This document shows positions 12,281 to 30,354 of a stretch of DNA of 34,565 nucleotides, one piece after another; the first letter of the stretch is position 1, and each line of letters opens with the position of its first letter. The stretch is taken from the IMG/VR virus record IMGVR_UViG_2537562189_000007; one strand, written 5' to 3'. Position numbers and translations under genes: made by a program. Source of the DNA: a virus (lineage: Duplodnaviria > Heunggongvirae > Uroviricota > Caudoviricetes). Below the pieces are notes generated by a model. It did no database searches. It saw only the letters and a list, made by a program, of their open reading frames with translations, and was not told where the DNA came from.

Positions 12281-12419
12281 AACTTCCCCTGAAAATTATG
12301 TAAATACACGCCAGTGATGAACAAAAACAATCAACTTCGACACTAAAAATTTTTATTATGGTATATATCAATGATTTACACTGGTGGTGATGGTGCCATA
12401 AAAATCAAAAAATGCGCCT

Positions 12420-12445
12420 TTTTCCGCGCCGCCCGCCCCGTGTTC
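12420..12445. other. Candidate cos site (cosN core)
   Basis: Minus strand reads CGGGGCGGGCGGCGCGG, resembling lambda cosN GGGCGGCGACCT, about 150 bp upstream of the Nu1-like start with an A/T-rich stretch between (cosB-like). Confidence 0.4.
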
Positions 12446-12697
12446 AGGCCCATCCCACCAGGAGGACCCGCAAAATAATAATGATTATCATTTTTAATGT
12501 AGTCCGGTTTCTTCCACCATCGCACCGGACAGGCGACTATGAGGGGACAACGCCGCGCTCCGTTAACGCGGTAAACCCCGGTGTGTATCGTTTTTGATTA
12601 TCCCCGCACACTCGCGCAGAGGAGTCTCCCTGTCGGGCTGCGGTCTCTGTTAATGCAGGAATACAGCGACAATACCGCGCATGGATAATAAGGTCGC

Positions 12698-12922
12698 TCA
12701 ACACACTGGCTGTAATGCAGCAGATACCATGCGGCATTTAGCGGCATTCATCGTACACTCAACGGTTAGCTCTTCATTCGTGGCATTCACCTGAAAGGTC
12801 CGGGAGTGTAATTGCGTACATTTACCACTGAACGAACCTTCAACAAGAACACGACCACGCTGCAAAATACGGAACGGAATTGTTCCCTGAAAAGGCTTTA
12901 CGGTTACCAGTAATTTCTTCAT
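12698..12922 (-). CDS. Hypothetical protein downstream of Rz
   Basis: 74-aa ORF whose start overlaps the Rz stop (ATGA); no recognisable motifs. Confidence 0.2.
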
Positions 12923-13413
12923 ATATCTTCCGGATAATAAAAAGACAACTTAATGCACTGAGTACGGATATATTCCTGCGCCCCTTCCAGTTGCTTCTGC
13001 ATCGTCATCAGCCGCTCTCTGAGGGTGAAATAATCCCGTGTAACGGTGTCTGCCAGTTGGGGGCCGGTTGCATTATCCACGCGGGCGGTGCCGGTGGCTT
13101 CACGCACGGGACCTGGACAGGTGGCGTTGATACGCAGGCGCTTACGACCAGCGGCAACGTCAGCGCGAAGAGTTTCATTTTCAGCTCTCGCATCGGCTAA
13201 TTCCCTCGAGTATTTTGCATCGAGCGCAGCAACATCACGCTGGCGCACCTGCATATCAGTAATGGTTGCGTTTGCCAGCTCCAGCTCTCTGGCTTTTTTA
13301 TCGCGCTGCGCTTTGTAAGTGATGGCGTTATCGCGGTAATGATTCAGCCCCAGACTAAGCGCACCACAGGCCACCAGCAGAGCAATGATGACCACACACA
13401 GAACGCGGTTCAT
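12919..13413 (-). CDS. Rz: i-spanin Rz
   Basis: 164 aa with N-terminal TM segment ([16 protein letters not shown]) and coiled-coil periplasmic domain; contains an embedded +1 frame Rz1 ORF. Confidence 0.85.
13008..13193 (-). CDS. Rz1: o-spanin Rz1, embedded in Rz
   Basis: Lipoprotein signal ([15 protein letters not shown]) followed by a proline-rich mature region ([22 protein letters not shown]); wholly inside Rz in another frame. True start probably the internal Met. Confidence 0.75.
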
Positions 13414-13414
13414 T

Positions 13415-13528
13415 TCACCACCAACGGATTGCCCAGATCAGAACAGCAATGGCTATAATACGAATGGCAAAAGCTGCCGCTCTTGTTAAATCCAGACTGG
13501 CTGGCGTCTCCACTTCAATGCCTTTCAT
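13415..13528 (-). CDS. Small membrane peptide (37 aa) immediately upstream of Rz
   Basis: ATG at 13528, [37 protein letters not shown], stop TGA one nt before the Rz ATG; not in the ORF track (below size cutoff). Confidence 0.3.
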
Positions 13529-13621
13529 AATGGACAACCTCAGAAAGAATCTTTTATACTTCCTCACAGGGAAAGCACCTCCCTCACCATAATTTCTCCC
13601 TTGCCTTATCCAAGGTCAGAA

Positions 13622-13655
13622 ACACAAAACCCCGCTTGCTGCCAACAAACGGGGT
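13622..13655. terminator. Bidirectional intrinsic terminator between endolysin and Rz
   Basis: aaaaCCCCGcttgctgccaacaaaCGGGGttttt: GC stem flanked by A-run and T-run, so it can act on either strand. Confidence 0.45.
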
Positions 13656-13748
13656 TTTTACTTTTATTCACTTAGGTTTTGCCAGTTCGCAGGATTTCGT
13701 GTTATCCGTCCGCGTTGGTCAACGTCATTTTTCAGCAAAATATTCTGC

Positions 13749-14282
13749 TTATCTGTCGATTCCCCAGCACGCCAGCGCGCTCTCCTGGTCACGACGGGAT
13801 ACCTGACCGTAACAGTTATTTGAGCGAATACGGCAGTCTCTGCCACCGTCCTTAATCCACCAGCGAATCGCTTCGCATGCTCCCCTGCGATCACCTGCAT
13901 TAATTCGTCTGTAAAACGTCGACGGGAAACACTTACCGGGACCAATGTTGTACGGACAGAATGACGCGATCCCCGCTTTCTGGGGTTCGGTCAGCGGCAC
14001 TCTGATGTTTTTCTCCACCCACGTCAGCGCTTTATCACGCTCAATGGCGTTAACCTGGTCGCATTTCCCCTTCGACAGCTTCATGCCAGGAATCACAGGC
14101 TTACCATCCACCCGGGTGGCTCCACGGCAGATGGTCCAGATACCCGCACCATCACGGTATGCTGTGGTGTGGTTACCTTCTTTTTCGTCAAGCAACTGGT
14201 CGAGGATTTCAGGCGCAGAAGCCCCTGCACCAATCAGCGCCAGAACGGCAGCCGATAAACCATAGCGGAGTTTCCTGCTCAT
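13749..14282 (-). CDS. R: SAR endolysin (T4-lysozyme-like, GH24)
   Basis: N-terminal Gly/Ala-rich signal-anchor-release segment (GLSAAVLALIGAGASAP) followed by lysozyme catalytic region (LDEKEGNHTTAYRDGAGIWTICRGAT). Confidence 0.85.
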   Translation of the reverse strand: MSRKLRYGLSAAVLALIGAGASAPEILDQLLDEKEGNHTTAYRDGAGIWTICRGATRVDGKPVIPGMKLSKGKCDQVNAIERDKALTWVEKNIRVPLTEPQKAGIASFCPYNIGPGKCFPSTFYRRINAGDRRGACEAIRWWIKDGGRDCRIRSNNCYGQVSRRDQESALACWGIDR

Positions 14283-14286
14283 CAGC

Positions 14287-14502
14287 TTACTCTCCCCGCG
14301 CCGCCTTACGACGGTCTTCTTTAATCTTGAAATACAGGTTCGTCAGATATGTCAGCAGCCCAAACAGCAGACTCCCCAGCACACCTATTGCCGCCCACTG
14401 AGACGGGGAAACCCTGTCCAGCAACTGCAGGAACCAGTAGCCCGTTCCCACCGCTGACGTGGTGTATGACACACCTGTTGTGATTTTTTCCATCTGGTAC
14501 AT
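14287..14502 (-). CDS. S: Pinholin (phage 21 S21-like) with dual start
   Basis: 71 aa [71 protein letters not shown], recalled as near-identical in pattern to S21; two Met codons (M1, M4) as in holin/antiholin dual starts. Confidence 0.8.
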
Positions 14503-14578
14503 ACCCCGTCTCCCGCAATCCGGAAGCTCACAACAATATAAAGACCACCGGCACACACCGATGGTCCCTTGCGCATGC

Positions 14579-14824
14579 TTACATCATCATGTCGCTGTCA
14601 GGTGTGGGTTCACCGCCATCTGAAGCACTCCCCTCACCCGCGATGCCTTCCGGCTCCGGAGCTGCCGGTGCGCCCAGCAGTTCATCCAGAATGGCATCCA
14701 CTTCTGCATCAAGACGCAACTCAAGGTTCTGGCGGAGTTTCTGTTTCAGTGCGCTCAGGACTTCTTCAGAGCGCAGGACTTCCTTCACTGCCTCTGCAGT
14801 GACCAGGGATGTGATTTCTGACAT
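14579..14824 (-). CDS. Hypothetical acidic protein (81 aa) upstream of holin
   Basis: Internal ATG at 14824 of ORF 14579..14998 ([17 protein letters not shown]...); acidic Gly/Pro-rich C-terminus; weak RBS. Confidence 0.3.
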
Positions 14825-14870
14825 GGGATTTTCTCGTTGAAAAGGGTTGTTAAGAAAGTTGCCGCTAAAT

Positions 14871-15044
14871 GAGCGGCTCTTCGGGTTTGCTTCCGGCTGA
14901 CTGACTGGCGCTGATTTTCTCTGCGGCCCTTTTATCAATCTGCCTGCGCCAGCAATCGCGCACTGCCCTGTACCCACCCGAAAGAAGATACAGCACACAG
15001 ACCACCGTACAGAAGTACAGCATTAACTGGTTCAGAAATGTCAT
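14871..15044 (-). CDS. Hypothetical small membrane protein (57 aa)
   Basis: ATG at 15044 preceded by GGTGAG; MTFLNQLMLYFCTVVCVLYLLSGGYRAVRDCWRRQ..., one TM segment then a basic tail; not in the ORF track. Confidence 0.3.
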
Positions 15045-15088
15045 GGTTTCTCACCGTGATAGTTGACATGATTTACTTATTTTTGTAG

Positions 15089-15110
15089 AAAAACACCGCA
15101 GACTTCGGTG
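15089..15110 (-). terminator. Intrinsic terminator between nanS-p-like gene and lysis region
   Basis: Minus strand CACCGAAGTCTGCGGTG hairpin followed by TTTTT. Confidence 0.4.
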
Positions 15111-15194
15111 TCATCATGGTCGTTTTACCAGCCGCCAGCATTCATGTAGTGGACAAAGTTCATCCCTTTCCTTCATTGCTGGCGGCCTTTTTTA

Positions 15195-17171
15195 TCATGC
15201 CGCGGCATCCGCGTTGTTCACTTCCACCTTCACACTGTCAATCAGCAACGTATATGTCGCCGCCTTTGATATGTCTGTCAGTTGCAGTTTGTCCGCCGCC
15301 CCTGATGCCGGAGATTTCACCAGTGTGAACGGTGTACCCCGTTTCTCATCCAGTACCGGCGTCACCTGAATGCTGTTGTTTCCGGCAAACTCAAAAGCCA
15401 GTGTGTGCCATCCGTTATCAAAGACCCCGAACGTATCCAGCTTCGCATTCTGCTTCTTGTGGTACATCGCGTTCAGGTTCGTCGCATCCGTCTGCAGGAA
15501 GAAGGACATCAGCATGTCGTTGCCTTCCTCTGACAGCGTCACTCCCTCCGGCAGGGACGACAACTGCCAGTAAATACCCAGGGCAAACTGATTCGGCACC
15601 AGTGCGCCCGGCACCTTAAACCGCACGCTCACACGTCCACCTTTCTTCAGCAACTCTGCTCCCTGCCCGGCGGCATCATGCTCCAGAAACCAGATGTGGC
15701 TTTCCGGTTTGTTCAGTTGCAGGGCCTTACCACCGGTGGCACCCTCATCACTGACCACAGCCTCAGCGATGTTTTTATTAACACTGTCTCCGCTCGCCGG
15801 TTTGTGATAATAGCGCCAGCCCTGTGATGCCAGGTCTTCACCGGACGCCAGCAGACTCATCAGGGTTCGGTTACTGACCGGGGCTTCCGGCTCTCTCTCC
15901 GGGCCTTCACCGGAAGGTCCGGTGGGCTTCACCGTATCAGGCTGTTTTCCGGTAATGAATTCAGCGGTTCTCCCGGCATGCACCAGAATCGCCGTTGCCA
16001 GACGGTCGGAAATAATCCCACGGCGAGCCCATGAACTGAAATGGCTGGCCCTGTCCACAGATGTCCAGGTCTTCTGGTCATTACGCCACTTTGAACCGTA
16101 ATAACCGACGGCTTCCAGGTCCGGGTCTTCTGCCGGGTTATTGGTCTGCACATTCGCACCATTCTCATCCGTCATTAACGGTACAAAGAAAATGTTCTGC
16201 GACTCCTTCCCCTTATACCCTCCGTATACTGATGCATACCCTTCCGCATGACGCTGCTTCCAGAAATACGTTGTGTCCCCGCAAATCCACGGTACCGCTG
16301 ATGCGCTGCCTCCTGTGCTCTGTGATGCCTGACCGGCAAGCTCCGTTCTGAACTGATTCACCATCGCACTAAACAGCCCCGGATGCTGCGCATGCGTCCC
16401 CACTGCCGCATCACCTTCTCCCTGCATCCACACCACCGCAAGCAGACGGTTTTTCGGGTTCTTCGCCAGTGCGGCTTTAGTCCGGCTCACCAAATCCTGA
16501 TACAGCGGCTTACCCACACCCCAGCGCAGTGAATTTTCCGATGCACCGGCTGATTCGCTGTATGTGCCGTCTGCACCCGTTGTGAATGCCGAAGCACCAC
16601 GGCAGCACGGAACCAGCAGAATGCCCGCATTCGCCGGTATAAACGGCAGCAGTTTTTTGGCGATATGCAGCCCCTGCCCCACGGTTCCGTACTGCCCCTT
16701 TGACAGGTCCGCTTTCGGATGGTTAAGACGGCTCATGTCCTGCACATCATGCAGACAATGGTCCGCCGGAATAATGTCGTTATACTTACAGGCGGCACCG
16801 CCCGGTGTCACCGTACTGCGGCGCGCCAGCTGCTTAATACGCGGGTCCGGACGGTCATATGTCTCCGGCAGCGGAAGGCCTTCACCATACGACATGCCGT
16901 TTGACTGCCCTGCCAGAACCACAACAAAGTAATACTCCGGGTCGCTGGTGGCGCTGATTACTGTGCCTTCTCCATCCGACGGCTTCACCACCACAGGTGT
17001 GCTCACATCACCTTCTGCGACAATCGCCTGAATAAGTGCTGCGCCATCATCCGTATACGAAGAAAACGGCCCGCCGTATGGCTGCCATCCTTCACGAATT
17101 TTTTGAGCAAGTGTATCAGCAAGGTCTGACGGCGACGCCGCCCTGACCACGTCATAGTGTTTAAATGCCAT
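15195..17171 (-). CDS. nanS: Prophage sialate O-acetylesterase (NanS-p-like)
   Basis: 658 aa; N-terminal DUF1737-like segment, SASA esterase core with GQSN motif (VVVLAGQSNGMSYGEG), C-terminal carbohydrate-binding-like region; GGGAGG RBS; location between tRNAs and holin as in EHEC lambdoid prophages. Confidence 0.8.
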   Translation of the reverse strand: MAFKHYDVVRAASPSDLADTLAQKIREGWQPYGGPFSSYTDDGAALIQAIVAEGDVSTPVVVKPSDGEGTVISATSDPEYYFVVVLAGQSNGMSYGEGLPLPETYDRPDPRIKQLARRSTVTPGGAACKYNDIIPADHCLHDVQDMSRLNHPKADLSKGQYGTVGQGLHIAKKLLPFIPANAGILLVPCCRGASAFTTGADGTYSESAGASENSLRWGVGKPLYQDLVSRTKAALAKNPKNRLLAVVWMQGEGDAAVGTHAQHPGLFSAMVNQFRTELAGQASQSTGGSASAVPWICGDTTYFWKQRHAEGYASVYGGYKGKESQNIFFVPLMTDENGANVQTNNPAEDPDLEAVGYYGSKWRNDQKTWTSVDRASHFSSWARRGIISDRLATAILVHAGRTAEFITGKQPDTVKPTGPSGEGPEREPEAPVSNRTLMSLLASGEDLASQGWRYYHKPASGDSVNKNIAEAVVSDEGATGGKALQLNKPESHIWFLEHDAAGQGAELLKKGGRVSVRFKVPGALVPNQFALGIYWQLSSLPEGVTLSEEGNDMLMSFFLQTDATNLNAMYHKKQNAKLDTFGVFDNGWHTLAFEFAGNNSIQVTPVLDEKRGTPFTLVKSPASGAADKLQLTDISKAATYTLLIDSVKVEVNNADAAA

Positions 17172-17397: not shown

Positions 17398-17427
17398 GCA
17401 TGTAAAAAGGCTCCTGCGATGAGGAGC
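17397..17427 (-). terminator. Intrinsic terminator (minus strand)
   Basis: Minus strand AGGCTCCTcatcgcAGGAGCCT (8-bp stem) followed by TTTTT; back-to-back with the plus-strand terminator. Confidence 0.5.
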
Positions 17428-17456
17428 CTGGATATATGCCTAATCTCTGTATACAG

Positions 17457-17650
17457 CATGATGCCGGGTGCCTCCCGGTGAATTCTGCAATGACCAGACA
17501 GAATCCGCAACTTGCCTATACAATACGCAACCAAACATCTGTCATTATGCCCCTCCGCTCAGGGGGATTCATCATGCAGGATTTTTTTAACAAATGCTCA
17601 GCCAGACAGGCAACCGTCAACTGACTGAATTGTGAGTGATTTAACATTTC
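17457..17650. repeat. Tandem direct repeat, copy 1 (period ~269 bp)
   Basis: Shares with copy 2 the blocks catg(a/g)tgccgggtgcctcccggtga, atgcccctccgc(t/a)cagggggattca(t/c)catgc and ttttaacaaat(g/a)ctcag...gacaggcaac(c/t)gtcaactgactgaattgtgag; the middle ~70 bp is diverged. Confidence 0.6.
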
Positions 17651-17674
17651 ACTGCCCGGTGCCTTCCCCTCATT

Positions 17675-17697
17675 AAAAAGCCCCTCCGGAGAGGGGC
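17675..17697 (-). terminator. Intrinsic terminator between the two repeat copies
   Basis: Palindrome GCCCCTCcggaGAGGGGC preceded on the plus strand by AAAAA, so the minus strand has hairpin plus TTTTT. Confidence 0.55.
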
Positions 17698-17725
17698 TAA
17701 AGCCGCGTATCTGTATCATCATGCG

Positions 17726-17916
17726 CATGGTGCCGGGTGCCTCCCGGTGAGTTCAGTATCAGCACCTGAACCCGCACCAGATAAGGGATATAACCAACCA
17801 CCTGTCGCTGATATGCCCCTCCGCACAGGGGGATTCACCATGCCAGTTTCTTTTAACAAATACTCAGTCTGACAGGCAACTGTCAACTGACTGAATTGTG
17901 AGACATTTAAAATTTT
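17726..17916. repeat. Tandem direct repeat, copy 2
   Basis: See copy 1; begins 269 bp after it with the same conserved blocks. Confidence 0.6.
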
Positions 17917-18005: not shown

Positions 18006-18082
18006 TGGCGCGTTGTACTGGATTCGAACCAGTGACCGATTGCTTAGAAGGCAATTGCTCTGTCCGGCTGAGCTAACAACGC
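18006..18082 (-). tRNA. argO: tRNA-Arg (anticodon UCU)
   Basis: Minus strand folds as a 77-nt cloverleaf GCGTTGT/ACAACGC acceptor, anticodon loop CUUCUAA, T-loop GGTTCGAATCC, encoded CCA. Confidence 0.8.
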
Positions 18083-18095
18083 TGAATACCGATAA

Positions 18096-18172
18096 TGGAC
18101 CGCCATCGAGGACTCGAACCCCGCGCAACCAGCTTCGAAGGCTGACGCTCTATCCCGATGAGCTAATGGCGG
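18096..18172 (-). tRNA. argN: tRNA-Arg (anticodon UCG)
   Basis: 77-nt cloverleaf with acceptor CCGCCAT/ATGGCGG, anticodon loop CUUCGAA, T-loop GGTTCGAGTCC, encoded CCA. Gene symbol by synteny with the ileZ-argN-argO cluster. Confidence 0.7.
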
Positions 18173-18181
18173 TATGTGATA

Positions 18182-18257
18182 TGGTGGCCCTTGCTGGATT
18201 TGAACCAGCGACCTGGCGATTATGAGTCGCTCGCTCTCACCACTGAGCTAAAGGGCC
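18182..18257 (-). tRNA. ileZ: tRNA with CAU anticodon, ileX-like (tRNA-Ile2; Met not excluded)
   Basis: 76-nt cloverleaf GGCCCTT...AAGGGCC-A-CCA, anticodon loop CUCAUAA; overall close to E. coli ileX as recalled. Confidence 0.65.
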
Positions 18258-29865: not shown

Positions 29866-30354
29866 TTAGCACCAGTAAAAACAGGTTGCCACTGGTTAAT
29901 TTACCCTGAAAAGTCAGGGCATAACACGAAAGCGCACGGCGAAGTTCGTATATCTGTACGGCGTCGTTAAATTTTCTTCGACCGTGCACTTCCGGTTGTG
30001 GCAATCCGCGAAATGGCGCGGCGGTAAGTATGGCTGGGGTTTCCTCCATTGCTCCAGAAAATGCACCGGGTTGTCAGGTTGACCATACGCTTAAGTGACA
30101 GCCCCGCCACAATACCCATGTGTAGTCTTTGGTGGCATCAGTTCTACTCCGTGACTGCTCTGCCACCCTTTTTAAAGTGAATTTTGTGATGCGGTGAATG
30201 CGGCTAAGCGCACGCGGAACAGTTAAAACCGTAAAGTGGTCTTTTACTGGCGTAACAGACATCAACTAACAATCCGGCGTTAATTGTTAACTGGTTAACG
30301 TCACCTGGAGGCACCAGGCACCACATCACAAAATTCATTGTTGAGGACGCGATA

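Follow-up and report, generated by a model that had tools for sequence, protein, structure and literature searches.

Few gene sets in biology have been studied as thoroughly as the lysis cassettes of lambdoid phages, which are usually told as holin, endolysin and spanin. Dual-start holins (lambda S105/S107, phage 21 S68/S71) are small membrane proteins with two in-frame starts, and accessory lysis genes, such as P2 lysA and the genes for the Mu releasin gp25 and the phiKT disruptin gp28, lie beside endolysin or spanin genes. In the hok/mok/sok systems, a small hydrophobic peptide is paired with a cis-antisense RNA. One type I toxin–antitoxin (TA) pair of this kind, hokW-sokW of the Stx2 prophage Sp5, promotes phage release (PMC8621323). 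The locus described here lies in a 34,565-nt stretch of viral DNA (Caudoviricetes; IMG/VR record IMGVR_UViG_2537562189_000007), called the window in what follows, which is an E. coli prophage of the lambdoid type. Its late region, on the minus strand, has the order esterase, holin, endolysin (R), spacer, Rz and terminase genes. Our subject is the spacer between R and Rz, which measures exactly 335 bp (13414–13748, between the R boundary at 13749 and the Rz start at 13413) and carries a hairpin, a leader and a 37-codon gene for a hydrophobic peptide. We report that this gene is under selection and that the unit moves between lysis cassettes, and we weigh whether an antisense RNA may control it.

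The 37-codon open reading frame (ORF) is a real coding gene under purifying selection. The initial annotation had described a 335-bp insert between R and Rz with a small ORF (13415..13528) whose stop abuts the Rz ATG, and these coordinates hold, the TGA standing one base before the ATG. Its further claim, that the ORF is a genuine gene for a hydrophobic peptide, is borne out by the pattern of variation across 83 loci (80 fetched related viral loci, the window and two annotated loci). These loci hold 11 alleles, all of the same length, and the ORF is intact in 82 of them and has lost its stop in one. The 33 variable columns fall 8/0/25 on codon positions 1/2/3 (chi-square P = 3.7e-7). Between the window and the most diverged allele group (locus L084), the proportions of synonymous and nonsynonymous differences (pS and pN) are 0.70 and 0.06; against two further lineages, recovered by an exhaustive HMMER search, pN is about 0.3 and synonymous sites are saturated; and against L170 the proportions are 0.72 and 0.33. 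The resulting dN/dS is approximately 0.03–0.2. A GAGG Shine-Dalgarno (SD) sequence stands 9 nt upstream of the ORF.

Distant relatives, about 50% identical, keep a length of 37–38 aa, the same start Met and a C-terminal [RK]WW. The hydrophobic C-terminal half varies solely through I/V/L swaps. The peptide has a Kyte-Doolittle maximum of 2.64 (15-residue window) in its hydrophobic segment and would be expected to insert in the membrane. RefSeq holds an identical copy (WP_000675930.1, annotated as a hypothetical protein), and the labels in public sources are either ‘hypothetical’ or ‘putative transmembrane protein’. The 37-aa form matches PHROG 4493, a family of unknown function (E 1.1e-15). In contrast, Pfam has no family for the 37-aa peptide (E up to 0.01) or for a 60-aa relative (E up to 0.1), no NCBIfam model matches the peptide, and it matches no holin PHROG or Pfam family. 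PADLOC returned no defence-system match, and membership of such a system was dropped. Nor does the peptide have the make-up of a spanin: it has 37–50 aa, no lipobox and only three residues past the hydrophobic segment, and a complete Rz/Rz1 pair is present downstream of its gene. The family is narrow and enterobacterial, in that the exhaustive HMMER search gave just 22 matches and a scan of species-representative genomes gave no confirmed relative; the 90%-identity cluster of the 37-aa form includes sequences found on about 1000 contigs each.

The spacer is a mobile module travelling between phage lysis cassettes, not a private insert. At least 80% of it is present in 674 of 5426 complete E. 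coli genomes, and a part (at least the R-proximal one) in 2030. Hairpin, leader and ORF recur as one unit, which at about 60 loci sits between a PF00959 lysozyme gene and Rz. At about 22 others it follows a GH108 endolysin (phrog_315), an M15 peptidase endolysin (phrog_465) or a 93-aa ORF, with a 60-aa lipobox protein (phrog_7528) in the place of Rz downstream. Two yet more distant lineages likewise adjoin lysis genes, so that the module was found in lysis cassettes without exception. Since it occurs with soluble GH108 and M15 endolysins too, the peptide is not specific to signal-arrest-release (SAR) endolysins, and its presence where the lipoprotein replaces Rz speaks against a function bound strictly to Rz. 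The initial annotation had offered three candidate functions for it: lysis-timing regulator, spanin accessory factor and small toxin. The 86-nt 3′ flank of R moves with R and not with the hairpin-leader-ORF module: it is matched in about 300 phage records, including those with an antirepressor (ant) gene in place of the hairpin, and in Sakai prophage Sp10 similarity to the window stops just short of the hairpin position. As for the lipobox protein (MSRKHWTHRMPR...LLVGC..., 2649–2831 in L084, about 20 similar loci), it sits where a spanin gene would be expected; there is no Rz-like gene in the L084 ORF list and no PF03245 match in the gene tables of L173–L175.

Comparison of related prophages shows that small membrane-protein genes have landed repeatedly at the R-Rz junction. 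R and Rz of Sakai Sp3 overlap without a gap, and relative to such cassettes the spacer is an added unit, as had been proposed. The accompanying generalization that S, R and Rz normally run without gaps holds for Sp3 but not for this phage group, given the 2030 genomes that match part of the spacer and the ant gene and hydrophobic ORFs of relatives. Sakai Sp9 and Sp10 have R, then ant, then a 48-aa hydrophobic ORF (phrog_4906) that ends 7 nt before Rz, and PhiR5_2 has R, the same hairpin, a 60-aa homologue of the peptide (phrog_1115), a phrog_4906 ORF and Rz. The phrog_4906 ORFs (43–48 aa; for example L085 1325–1471, which is Sakai ECs_1966, and L003 2171–2302) form an unrelated family. In the Stx2a phage Stx2_14040 (L002 2360–2500), a hydrophobic ORF of a third kind, MAEKLST*KFILIWLVFVIMVSGYFIGQIRWW, comes after the hairpin; it contains an in-frame TAG and reaches Rz through the same RWW-TGA-A-ATG(Rz) junction, and its RWW ending is probably shared because the frame reads through the conserved Rz ribosome-binding region GGTGGTGA. 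The initial annotation had named absence of the ORF from otherwise identical cassettes as an outcome that would refute it, and here the picture is mixed. Near-identical R genes do have other contents after them, yet these again include small hydrophobic ORFs that end just before Rz.

The module is also carried by prophage Sp4 of O157:H7 Sakai, where R is ECs_1096, Rz is ECs_1092, and the gene between them, ECs_1094, is an allele of the 37-aa peptide gene. The Sp4 module occupies 1184614–1184947 of NC_002695.2, and the antisense RNA predicted below would fall on the plus strand there, at about 1184766–1184862. The holin-endolysin-peptide-Rz block of this copy (L088, 1184145–1186375) stands inverted with respect to the tRNA and esterase genes and is flanked by IS629 and pchA on one side and by ISEc8 on the other, so that it lies in a prophage that is rearranged and probably defective.

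On the strand opposite to the peptide gene, a consensus scan of 12300–15200 in both directions found a single promoter-like match, TGGACA-N18-TATACT (10 of 12 consensus positions), which overlaps the 5′ end of the gene and is directed at the hairpin about 65 nt away. On the sense strand of the same interval, this consensus scan found no sigma-70-like promoter, such as a type I toxin gene would have for itself, and a terminator precedes the ORF. The promoter-like site is identical in 23 of 23 distinct leader versions, while the stretch from the site to the hairpin is heavily diverged. In L084 and L170 (TGGACA-18-TATACT in both) and in L171 (CCGACA-18-TATAAT), the scanner again found a 10/12 site at the same relative place, as the only or best match in the region scanned. 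Between the window and L084, the 39 nt upstream of the ATG, which hold both hexamers, are 92% identical, compared with 78% for the ORF, 61% for the leader (17 gapped columns), 64% for the hairpin and 43% past the stop; third-position differences number 1 of 13 in the 39-nt stretch and 20 of 37 in the ORF (Fisher P = 0.004). A non-conservative change (KYK to NYI) affects the codons that overlap the site in L171, while the -10 hexamer has turned into the consensus TATAAT. The Tyr codon is TAT in all six lineages, and its wobble base complements the critical -11 A.

From the promoter-like site and the terminator, an antisense RNA of about 96 nt is predicted. For 22 of the 23 leader versions the prediction gives 91–98 nt; L061, with an insertion, gives 125 nt. 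The RNA would have a 5′ stem-loop and a terminator stem. It would be complementary to a short upstream ORF (uORF), to the SD of the uORF and to an in-frame GTG start, whereas the 37-aa form would have its SD and ATG outside the complementary stretch.

These upstream elements give the peptide a possible second form. The TGA of the 8-codon uORF overlaps the in-frame GTG as GTGA, and initiation at this GTG would yield 50 aa. The long form aligns with PHROG 4493 end to end (profile positions 1–54 of 56, E 2.9e-24), and in two alleles (L005 and L061) the GTG is replaced by ATG. In the 60-aa homologue, which starts with SD-ATG and MEKYKRILLRLT-MKNG, the N-terminal extension is kept as protein, and the GTG of the window (13567) is the equivalent codon in that extension. 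The uORF ATG (13590) and its SD correspond to the start of the homologue in PhiR5_2; the window has about 23 extra bases right after this ancestral SD and ATG, so that the ATG now opens the 8-codon uORF. The L084 and L170 lineages also have a uORF that ends at or just past the in-frame GTG. The extension's conservation at the protein level is a reason to think that the long form is made now or was made in the past, and the diverged 37-aa relatives point to the short form as a real product.

The bidirectional terminator that the initial annotation had placed at 13622..13655 was recovered within a few bases of that span, as a hairpin with a GC-rich stem-loop followed by a T-run, the hallmark of an intrinsic (Rho-independent) terminator. 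The consensus scanner scores it on the minus strand (13658–13626). A T-run follows the stem in either direction, TTTTT on the plus strand (TTTTTACTTTTATT) and TTTTGTGTTT on the minus strand, and the hairpin looks like an intrinsic terminator able to work both ways. It exceeds chance, because diverged lineages keep the stem by paired substitutions (TTG:CAA versus CTG:CAG, or GACTG:CAGTC). In L170 the T-run is present on the antisense strand only.

At the other end of the module, the one-base TGA-N-ATG spacing is invariant in all Rz-linked and lipoprotein-linked loci and in L170 and L171, the middle base being A, T or C. From this arrangement, translation of the next gene, here Rz, is probably coupled to that of the peptide gene.

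The explanation that we favour, although we rate its chances a little below even, is that the spacer encodes a late membrane peptide with spanin-coupled translation, whose upstream start would be under hok/sok-like control by a cis-antisense RNA. The peptide would be made from the Q-antiterminated late transcript along with S, R and Rz, since no sigma-70-like promoter of its own was detected, and translation of its ORF would feed ribosomes into the spanin gene. From the opposite strand, a sigma-70-type promoter would yield the antisense RNA of about 96 nt, ending at the hairpin. This RNA, wholly complementary to the leader, would cover the GTG start and the uORF's SD and ATG, whereas the start signals (SD and ATG) of the 37-aa form would stay uncovered. 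In the lysogen, or soon after induction, it might block uORF-coupled initiation of the long form, or trigger cleavage of stray sense transcripts; massive late transcription would subsequently outrun it. The peptide would have an effect on lysis or on the cell.

The main rival, a possibility that we consider real though on the unlikely side, does without antisense control and takes the peptide gene to be a late lysis-accessory gene of the ordinary kind. The hairpin would then be a terminator or 3′-end stabilizer after R, read through by Q-modified polymerase; the peptide would modulate holin, endolysin or spanin, or merely deliver ribosomes to Rz; and the SD, the KYKR..LRLSI codons and an A/T-rich initiation region would between them produce the promoter-like match as a side effect. 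A number of observations weigh against antisense control, and several of them favour this rival. As sense (minus) RNA, the hairpin of the R-linked lineage has the greater stability (-13 to -16 versus about -9 kcal/mol), because G-U wobbles turn into C-A mismatches on the antisense strand, and in Stx2_14040 it is convincing solely on the sense strand; it likely also, or mainly, stops non-antiterminated transcription after R. Coding and translation signals account for some of the conservation of the 39-nt stretch, because it has the GAGG SD and encodes the conserved KYKR..LRL, and this part of the peptide is also kept in the 60-aa relatives. The promoter-like site is weaker in those relatives (9/12; TAGTCA or TGGTCA), degraded to about 8/12 in L172 and absent from the rearranged L173 and L174. 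A Sakai peak list from crosslinking and analysis of cDNA with Hfq (Hfq-CRAC) has no entry at the homologous site in the Sp4 copy; cis-antisense RNAs are often Hfq-independent. Sense leaders fold no better than shuffled sequences (z = -0.5, -0.1, +2.1 and +0.2), and a hok-like folded leader or an SD-sequestering hairpin was dropped for this reason. The confinement of the module to lysis cassettes and the filling of the same slot before Rz by other small hydrophobic ORFs (phrog_4906, Stx2_14040) also fit an accessory gene. However, coding does not explain the third-position contrast of 1/13 with 20/37, nor why the L171 codons were altered non-conservatively while its -10 reached consensus. The T-run of the L170 hairpin lies solely on the antisense strand, and the hairpin accompanies the peptide gene behind unrelated endolysins instead of staying with R.

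Three other explanations were weighed. That the opposite strand makes a trans-acting moron small RNA (sRNA), which would regulate host or phage mRNAs and leave the peptide ORF secondary, seems improbable. The promoter and terminator do enclose about 96 nt without an ORF, prophage late regions of enterohaemorrhagic and enteropathogenic E. coli (EHEC and EPEC) are rich in sRNA genes (PMC4104026; bioRxiv 10.64898/2026.05.13.724894), and STnc100 and DicF genes lie in the same window, but the RNA body is only about 61% identical between lineages, with indels, and so has no conserved seed region; the Sp4 copy has no Hfq-CRAC peak, the RNA has no Rfam match, and the ORF is itself under strong purifying selection. 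Small single-pass moron membrane proteins such as HK97 gp15 can block phage DNA entry, and by analogy the peptide could be a lysogen-expressed moron protein for superinfection exclusion or membrane protection, unrelated to lysis, at a junction that is a hot spot for added genes (ant, phrog_4906). We think this quite improbable: there is no sense promoter-like site between R and the ORF, a terminator stands ahead of the ORF, the sole promoter-like site faces the opposite direction, and TGA-N-ATG ties the ORF to the next late gene in every case. Finally, the ORF might be a decaying, functionless remnant of the 60-aa phrog_1115 gene, in which about 23 nt were inserted after the ancestral ATG and the C-terminus was replaced. 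The 8-codon uORF left by the extra bases after the ancestral SD and ATG of PhiR5_2, and a C-terminal half unlike that of the 60-aa protein, are what a remnant would show, yet 82 of 83 loci keep the 37-codon unit whole, dN/dS is 0.03–0.18, the length of the unit is unchanged in relatives of about 50% identity, and the 37-aa form is widespread (about 1000 contigs per sequence in its cluster, and the spacer in 674 complete E. coli genomes), which makes this reading hard to credit.

Known sRNA families were also considered for the spacer. Rfam 15 placed nothing there at gathering score in a scan of the whole window, AgvB, AsxR, Sok and STnc100 being among the families covered, and the best match of a permissive scan of 13300–13900 was rimP-leader, at 25.6 bits versus a cut-off of 47 and driven by the terminator. 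In the literature AgvB/AsxR and PasA/PasC lie upstream of the holin gene (in the interval that runs from the PR′ region or the sialate esterase gene to the holin gene), not between R and Rz, and the AgvB/AsxR core motif was not found anywhere in the window. The Hfq-CRAC peaks EcOnc11 and EcOnc12, suspected to fall in the R-Rz gap, are actually just downstream of Rz in Sakai Sp10 and Sp9. These peaks (Tree et al., 2014) lie about 75 nt past the Rz stop, antisense to the late operon (L085 ~2019–2067 and L086 ~2022–2069), and would mark a further uncharacterised sRNA site on the border of the lysis cassette.

Table 1. Features of the R-Rz spacer and of neighbouring regions of the window.
Feature	Position	Strand	Remarks
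37-aa hydrophobic peptide ORF	13415-13528	minus	ATG start, TGA stop; SD GAGG 13538-13541
50-aa form of the peptide	13415-13567	minus	VRKYKRFFLRLSI + 37 aa; in-frame GTG start at 13567
8-codon uORF	13564-13590	minus	MVREVLSL; SD AAGGGAG 13596-13602; read from sequence
TGA-A-ATG stop/start junction, peptide gene/Rz	13411-13417	minus	TGA one base from Rz ATG
Sigma-70-like site	13531-13560	plus	TGGACA-N18-TATACT; 10/12 matches, consensus scan
Predicted cis-antisense RNA, ~96 nt	13567-13662	plus	From ~7 nt past TATACT to T-run
Hairpin with A-run and T-run	13626-13658	either	Terminator-like by consensus scanner; core stem 13630-13638 / 13646-13654, 9 bp; loop 13639-13645; flanks A4 13626-13629 and T5 13655-13659; 15 pairs if flanking A-T pairs are included
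3′ flank of R, 86 nt	13663-13748	minus	Common to nearly all Stx-phage R genes
Endolysin R, 177 aa	13749-14282	minus	PF00959, E 4e-24; phrog_7 endolysin
S21-type holin	14287-14502	minus	MYQM dual start
Rz i-spanin gene	12919-13413	minus	3′ neighbour of peptide gene; PF03245, E 1e-48
Rz1, embedded in Rz	13008-13193	minus	PF06085, E 1e-19
ORF overlapping Rz end, 74 aa	12698-12922	minus	Matches only positions 100-172 of 291-position phrog_2571 profile
Terminator-like hairpin	14540-14569	minus	13 pairs, then TTTATATTGTTGT
Sialate esterase gene	15195-17171	minus	
STnc100 sRNA, two tandem copies	17398-17606 and 17668-17872	minus	183 and 146 bits
Three tRNA genes	18009-18257	minus	Adjoin the STnc100 pair
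DicF sRNA gene, full length	30117-30168	plus	RF00039, 61 bits
Terminase genes	downstream of Rz		

Several neighbouring features deserve mention in their own right (Table 1). The N-terminus of R, MSRKLRYGLSAAVLALIGAGASA, looks like a SAR or signal segment. Rz of the window has 164 aa, while most relatives have 155 aa and end in QCIP or QCLN (12919–12950 region), and a 74-aa ORF that overlaps the end of Rz matches only an internal part of its family profile; this suggests a deletion or recombination joint exactly at the Rz 3′ end. Between esterase and holin, just 5′ of the holin start, lies a second terminator-like hairpin; the published position of the PasA/PasC sRNA genes is likewise between esterase and holin genes. 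Upstream of the sialate esterase gene, three tRNA genes adjoin the STnc100 pair, and STnc100 has been connected with the PasD sRNAs of EPEC in a 2026 preprint. The DicF gene is of full length, so that the prophage also has a dicB-type cell-division inhibition region.

The ORF itself was known already, as a RefSeq entry; what is new is the evidence for selection, the mobile hairpin-promoter-ORF module tied to lysis cassettes and the conserved signals for antisense control. The opposite-strand promoter-like site, the in-frame GTG with its uORF and the mobility across hundreds of E. coli genomes had no place in the initial annotation. We searched the literature on ECs1094 and on genes between R and Rz in such phages and found nothing relevant, and the parts of the module have no covering model in Rfam, Pfam, NCBIfam or PADLOC. 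It is tempting to see here an unrecognised mobile ‘antisense-gated lysis peptide’ module, in which a lysogen sRNA would silence a dual-isoform peptide that, once released late, would act as lysis effector or timer and set the spanin level through coupling; we hold this to be doubtful. The module lies in lambdoid prophages, including those of Stx type, in more than 10% of complete E. coli genomes, and a conserved fourth component of the cassette, under antisense control and tied to the spanin gene, would give lysis timing a further level of regulation. The module is present in hundreds of clinical E. coli genomes, including O157:H7 Sakai, and in Stx prophages lysis timing sets the time of Shiga toxin release. 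Even on the plainest reading, the 37 codons annotated as a ‘hypothetical protein’ form a real gene that strong purifying selection maintains.

How, then, does the module compare with described systems? Like the dual-start holins, the peptide is a small membrane protein with two in-frame starts, and its long form carries extra N-terminal positive charge (RKYKRFFLRLSI, five basic residues). Two in-frame starts do not by themselves make it a holin. It has one hydrophobic segment rather than two or three, and its extension has 13 residues rather than 2–3; its gene follows that of the endolysin, and the window already has an S21-type holin with a dual start of its own. The accessory lysis genes share with it their position in the cassette, small size and membrane-active or cationic character, but no homology was detected to them, and the peptide co-occurs here with a full Rz/Rz1 pair and so is no spanin replacement. 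The opposite-strand unit recalls lambdoid morons in that a sigma-70-like promoter and an intrinsic terminator stand between genes that are adjacent in relatives such as Sakai Sp3; unlike a moron, it has no ORF inside, and the protein gene is on the other strand, without a promoter. Of the two other small families at this junction, both uncharacterised, phrog_4906 takes the same slot before Rz and has no detectable similarity to the peptide, whereas phrog_1115 is a true homologue that shares KYKR..LRL, LxxxRAxAFAI[RK], the hairpin and the promoter-like site, although it starts at the ancestral ATG without a uORF and has a longer, different C-terminal hydrophobic segment.

The comparison with hok/mok/sok is the closest in layout. 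Homology to Hok/Gef was rejected, as neither Pfam nor NCBIfam gave a match, and HokW is a different protein, encoded elsewhere in Sp5. The module also departs from hok/sok in having no sense promoter that we could find and no support for hok-like folding of the leader, and in the placement of its gene inside the late lysis operon, joined to the spanin gene; membership of the type I TA class is not established. At 37 or 50 aa, the peptide nevertheless falls among the small (<60 aa) hydrophobic proteins of that class, and, like hokW-sokW, the module family resides in Stx-type prophages. What hok/mok/sok and the module have in common is a hydrophobic peptide of small size, a short frame upstream that runs into the start of the long form and a cis-antisense RNA (here predicted) with its own promoter and terminator that covers the upstream start. 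By analogy, the logic of the module would resemble that of hok/mok/sok, set within a lysis cassette.

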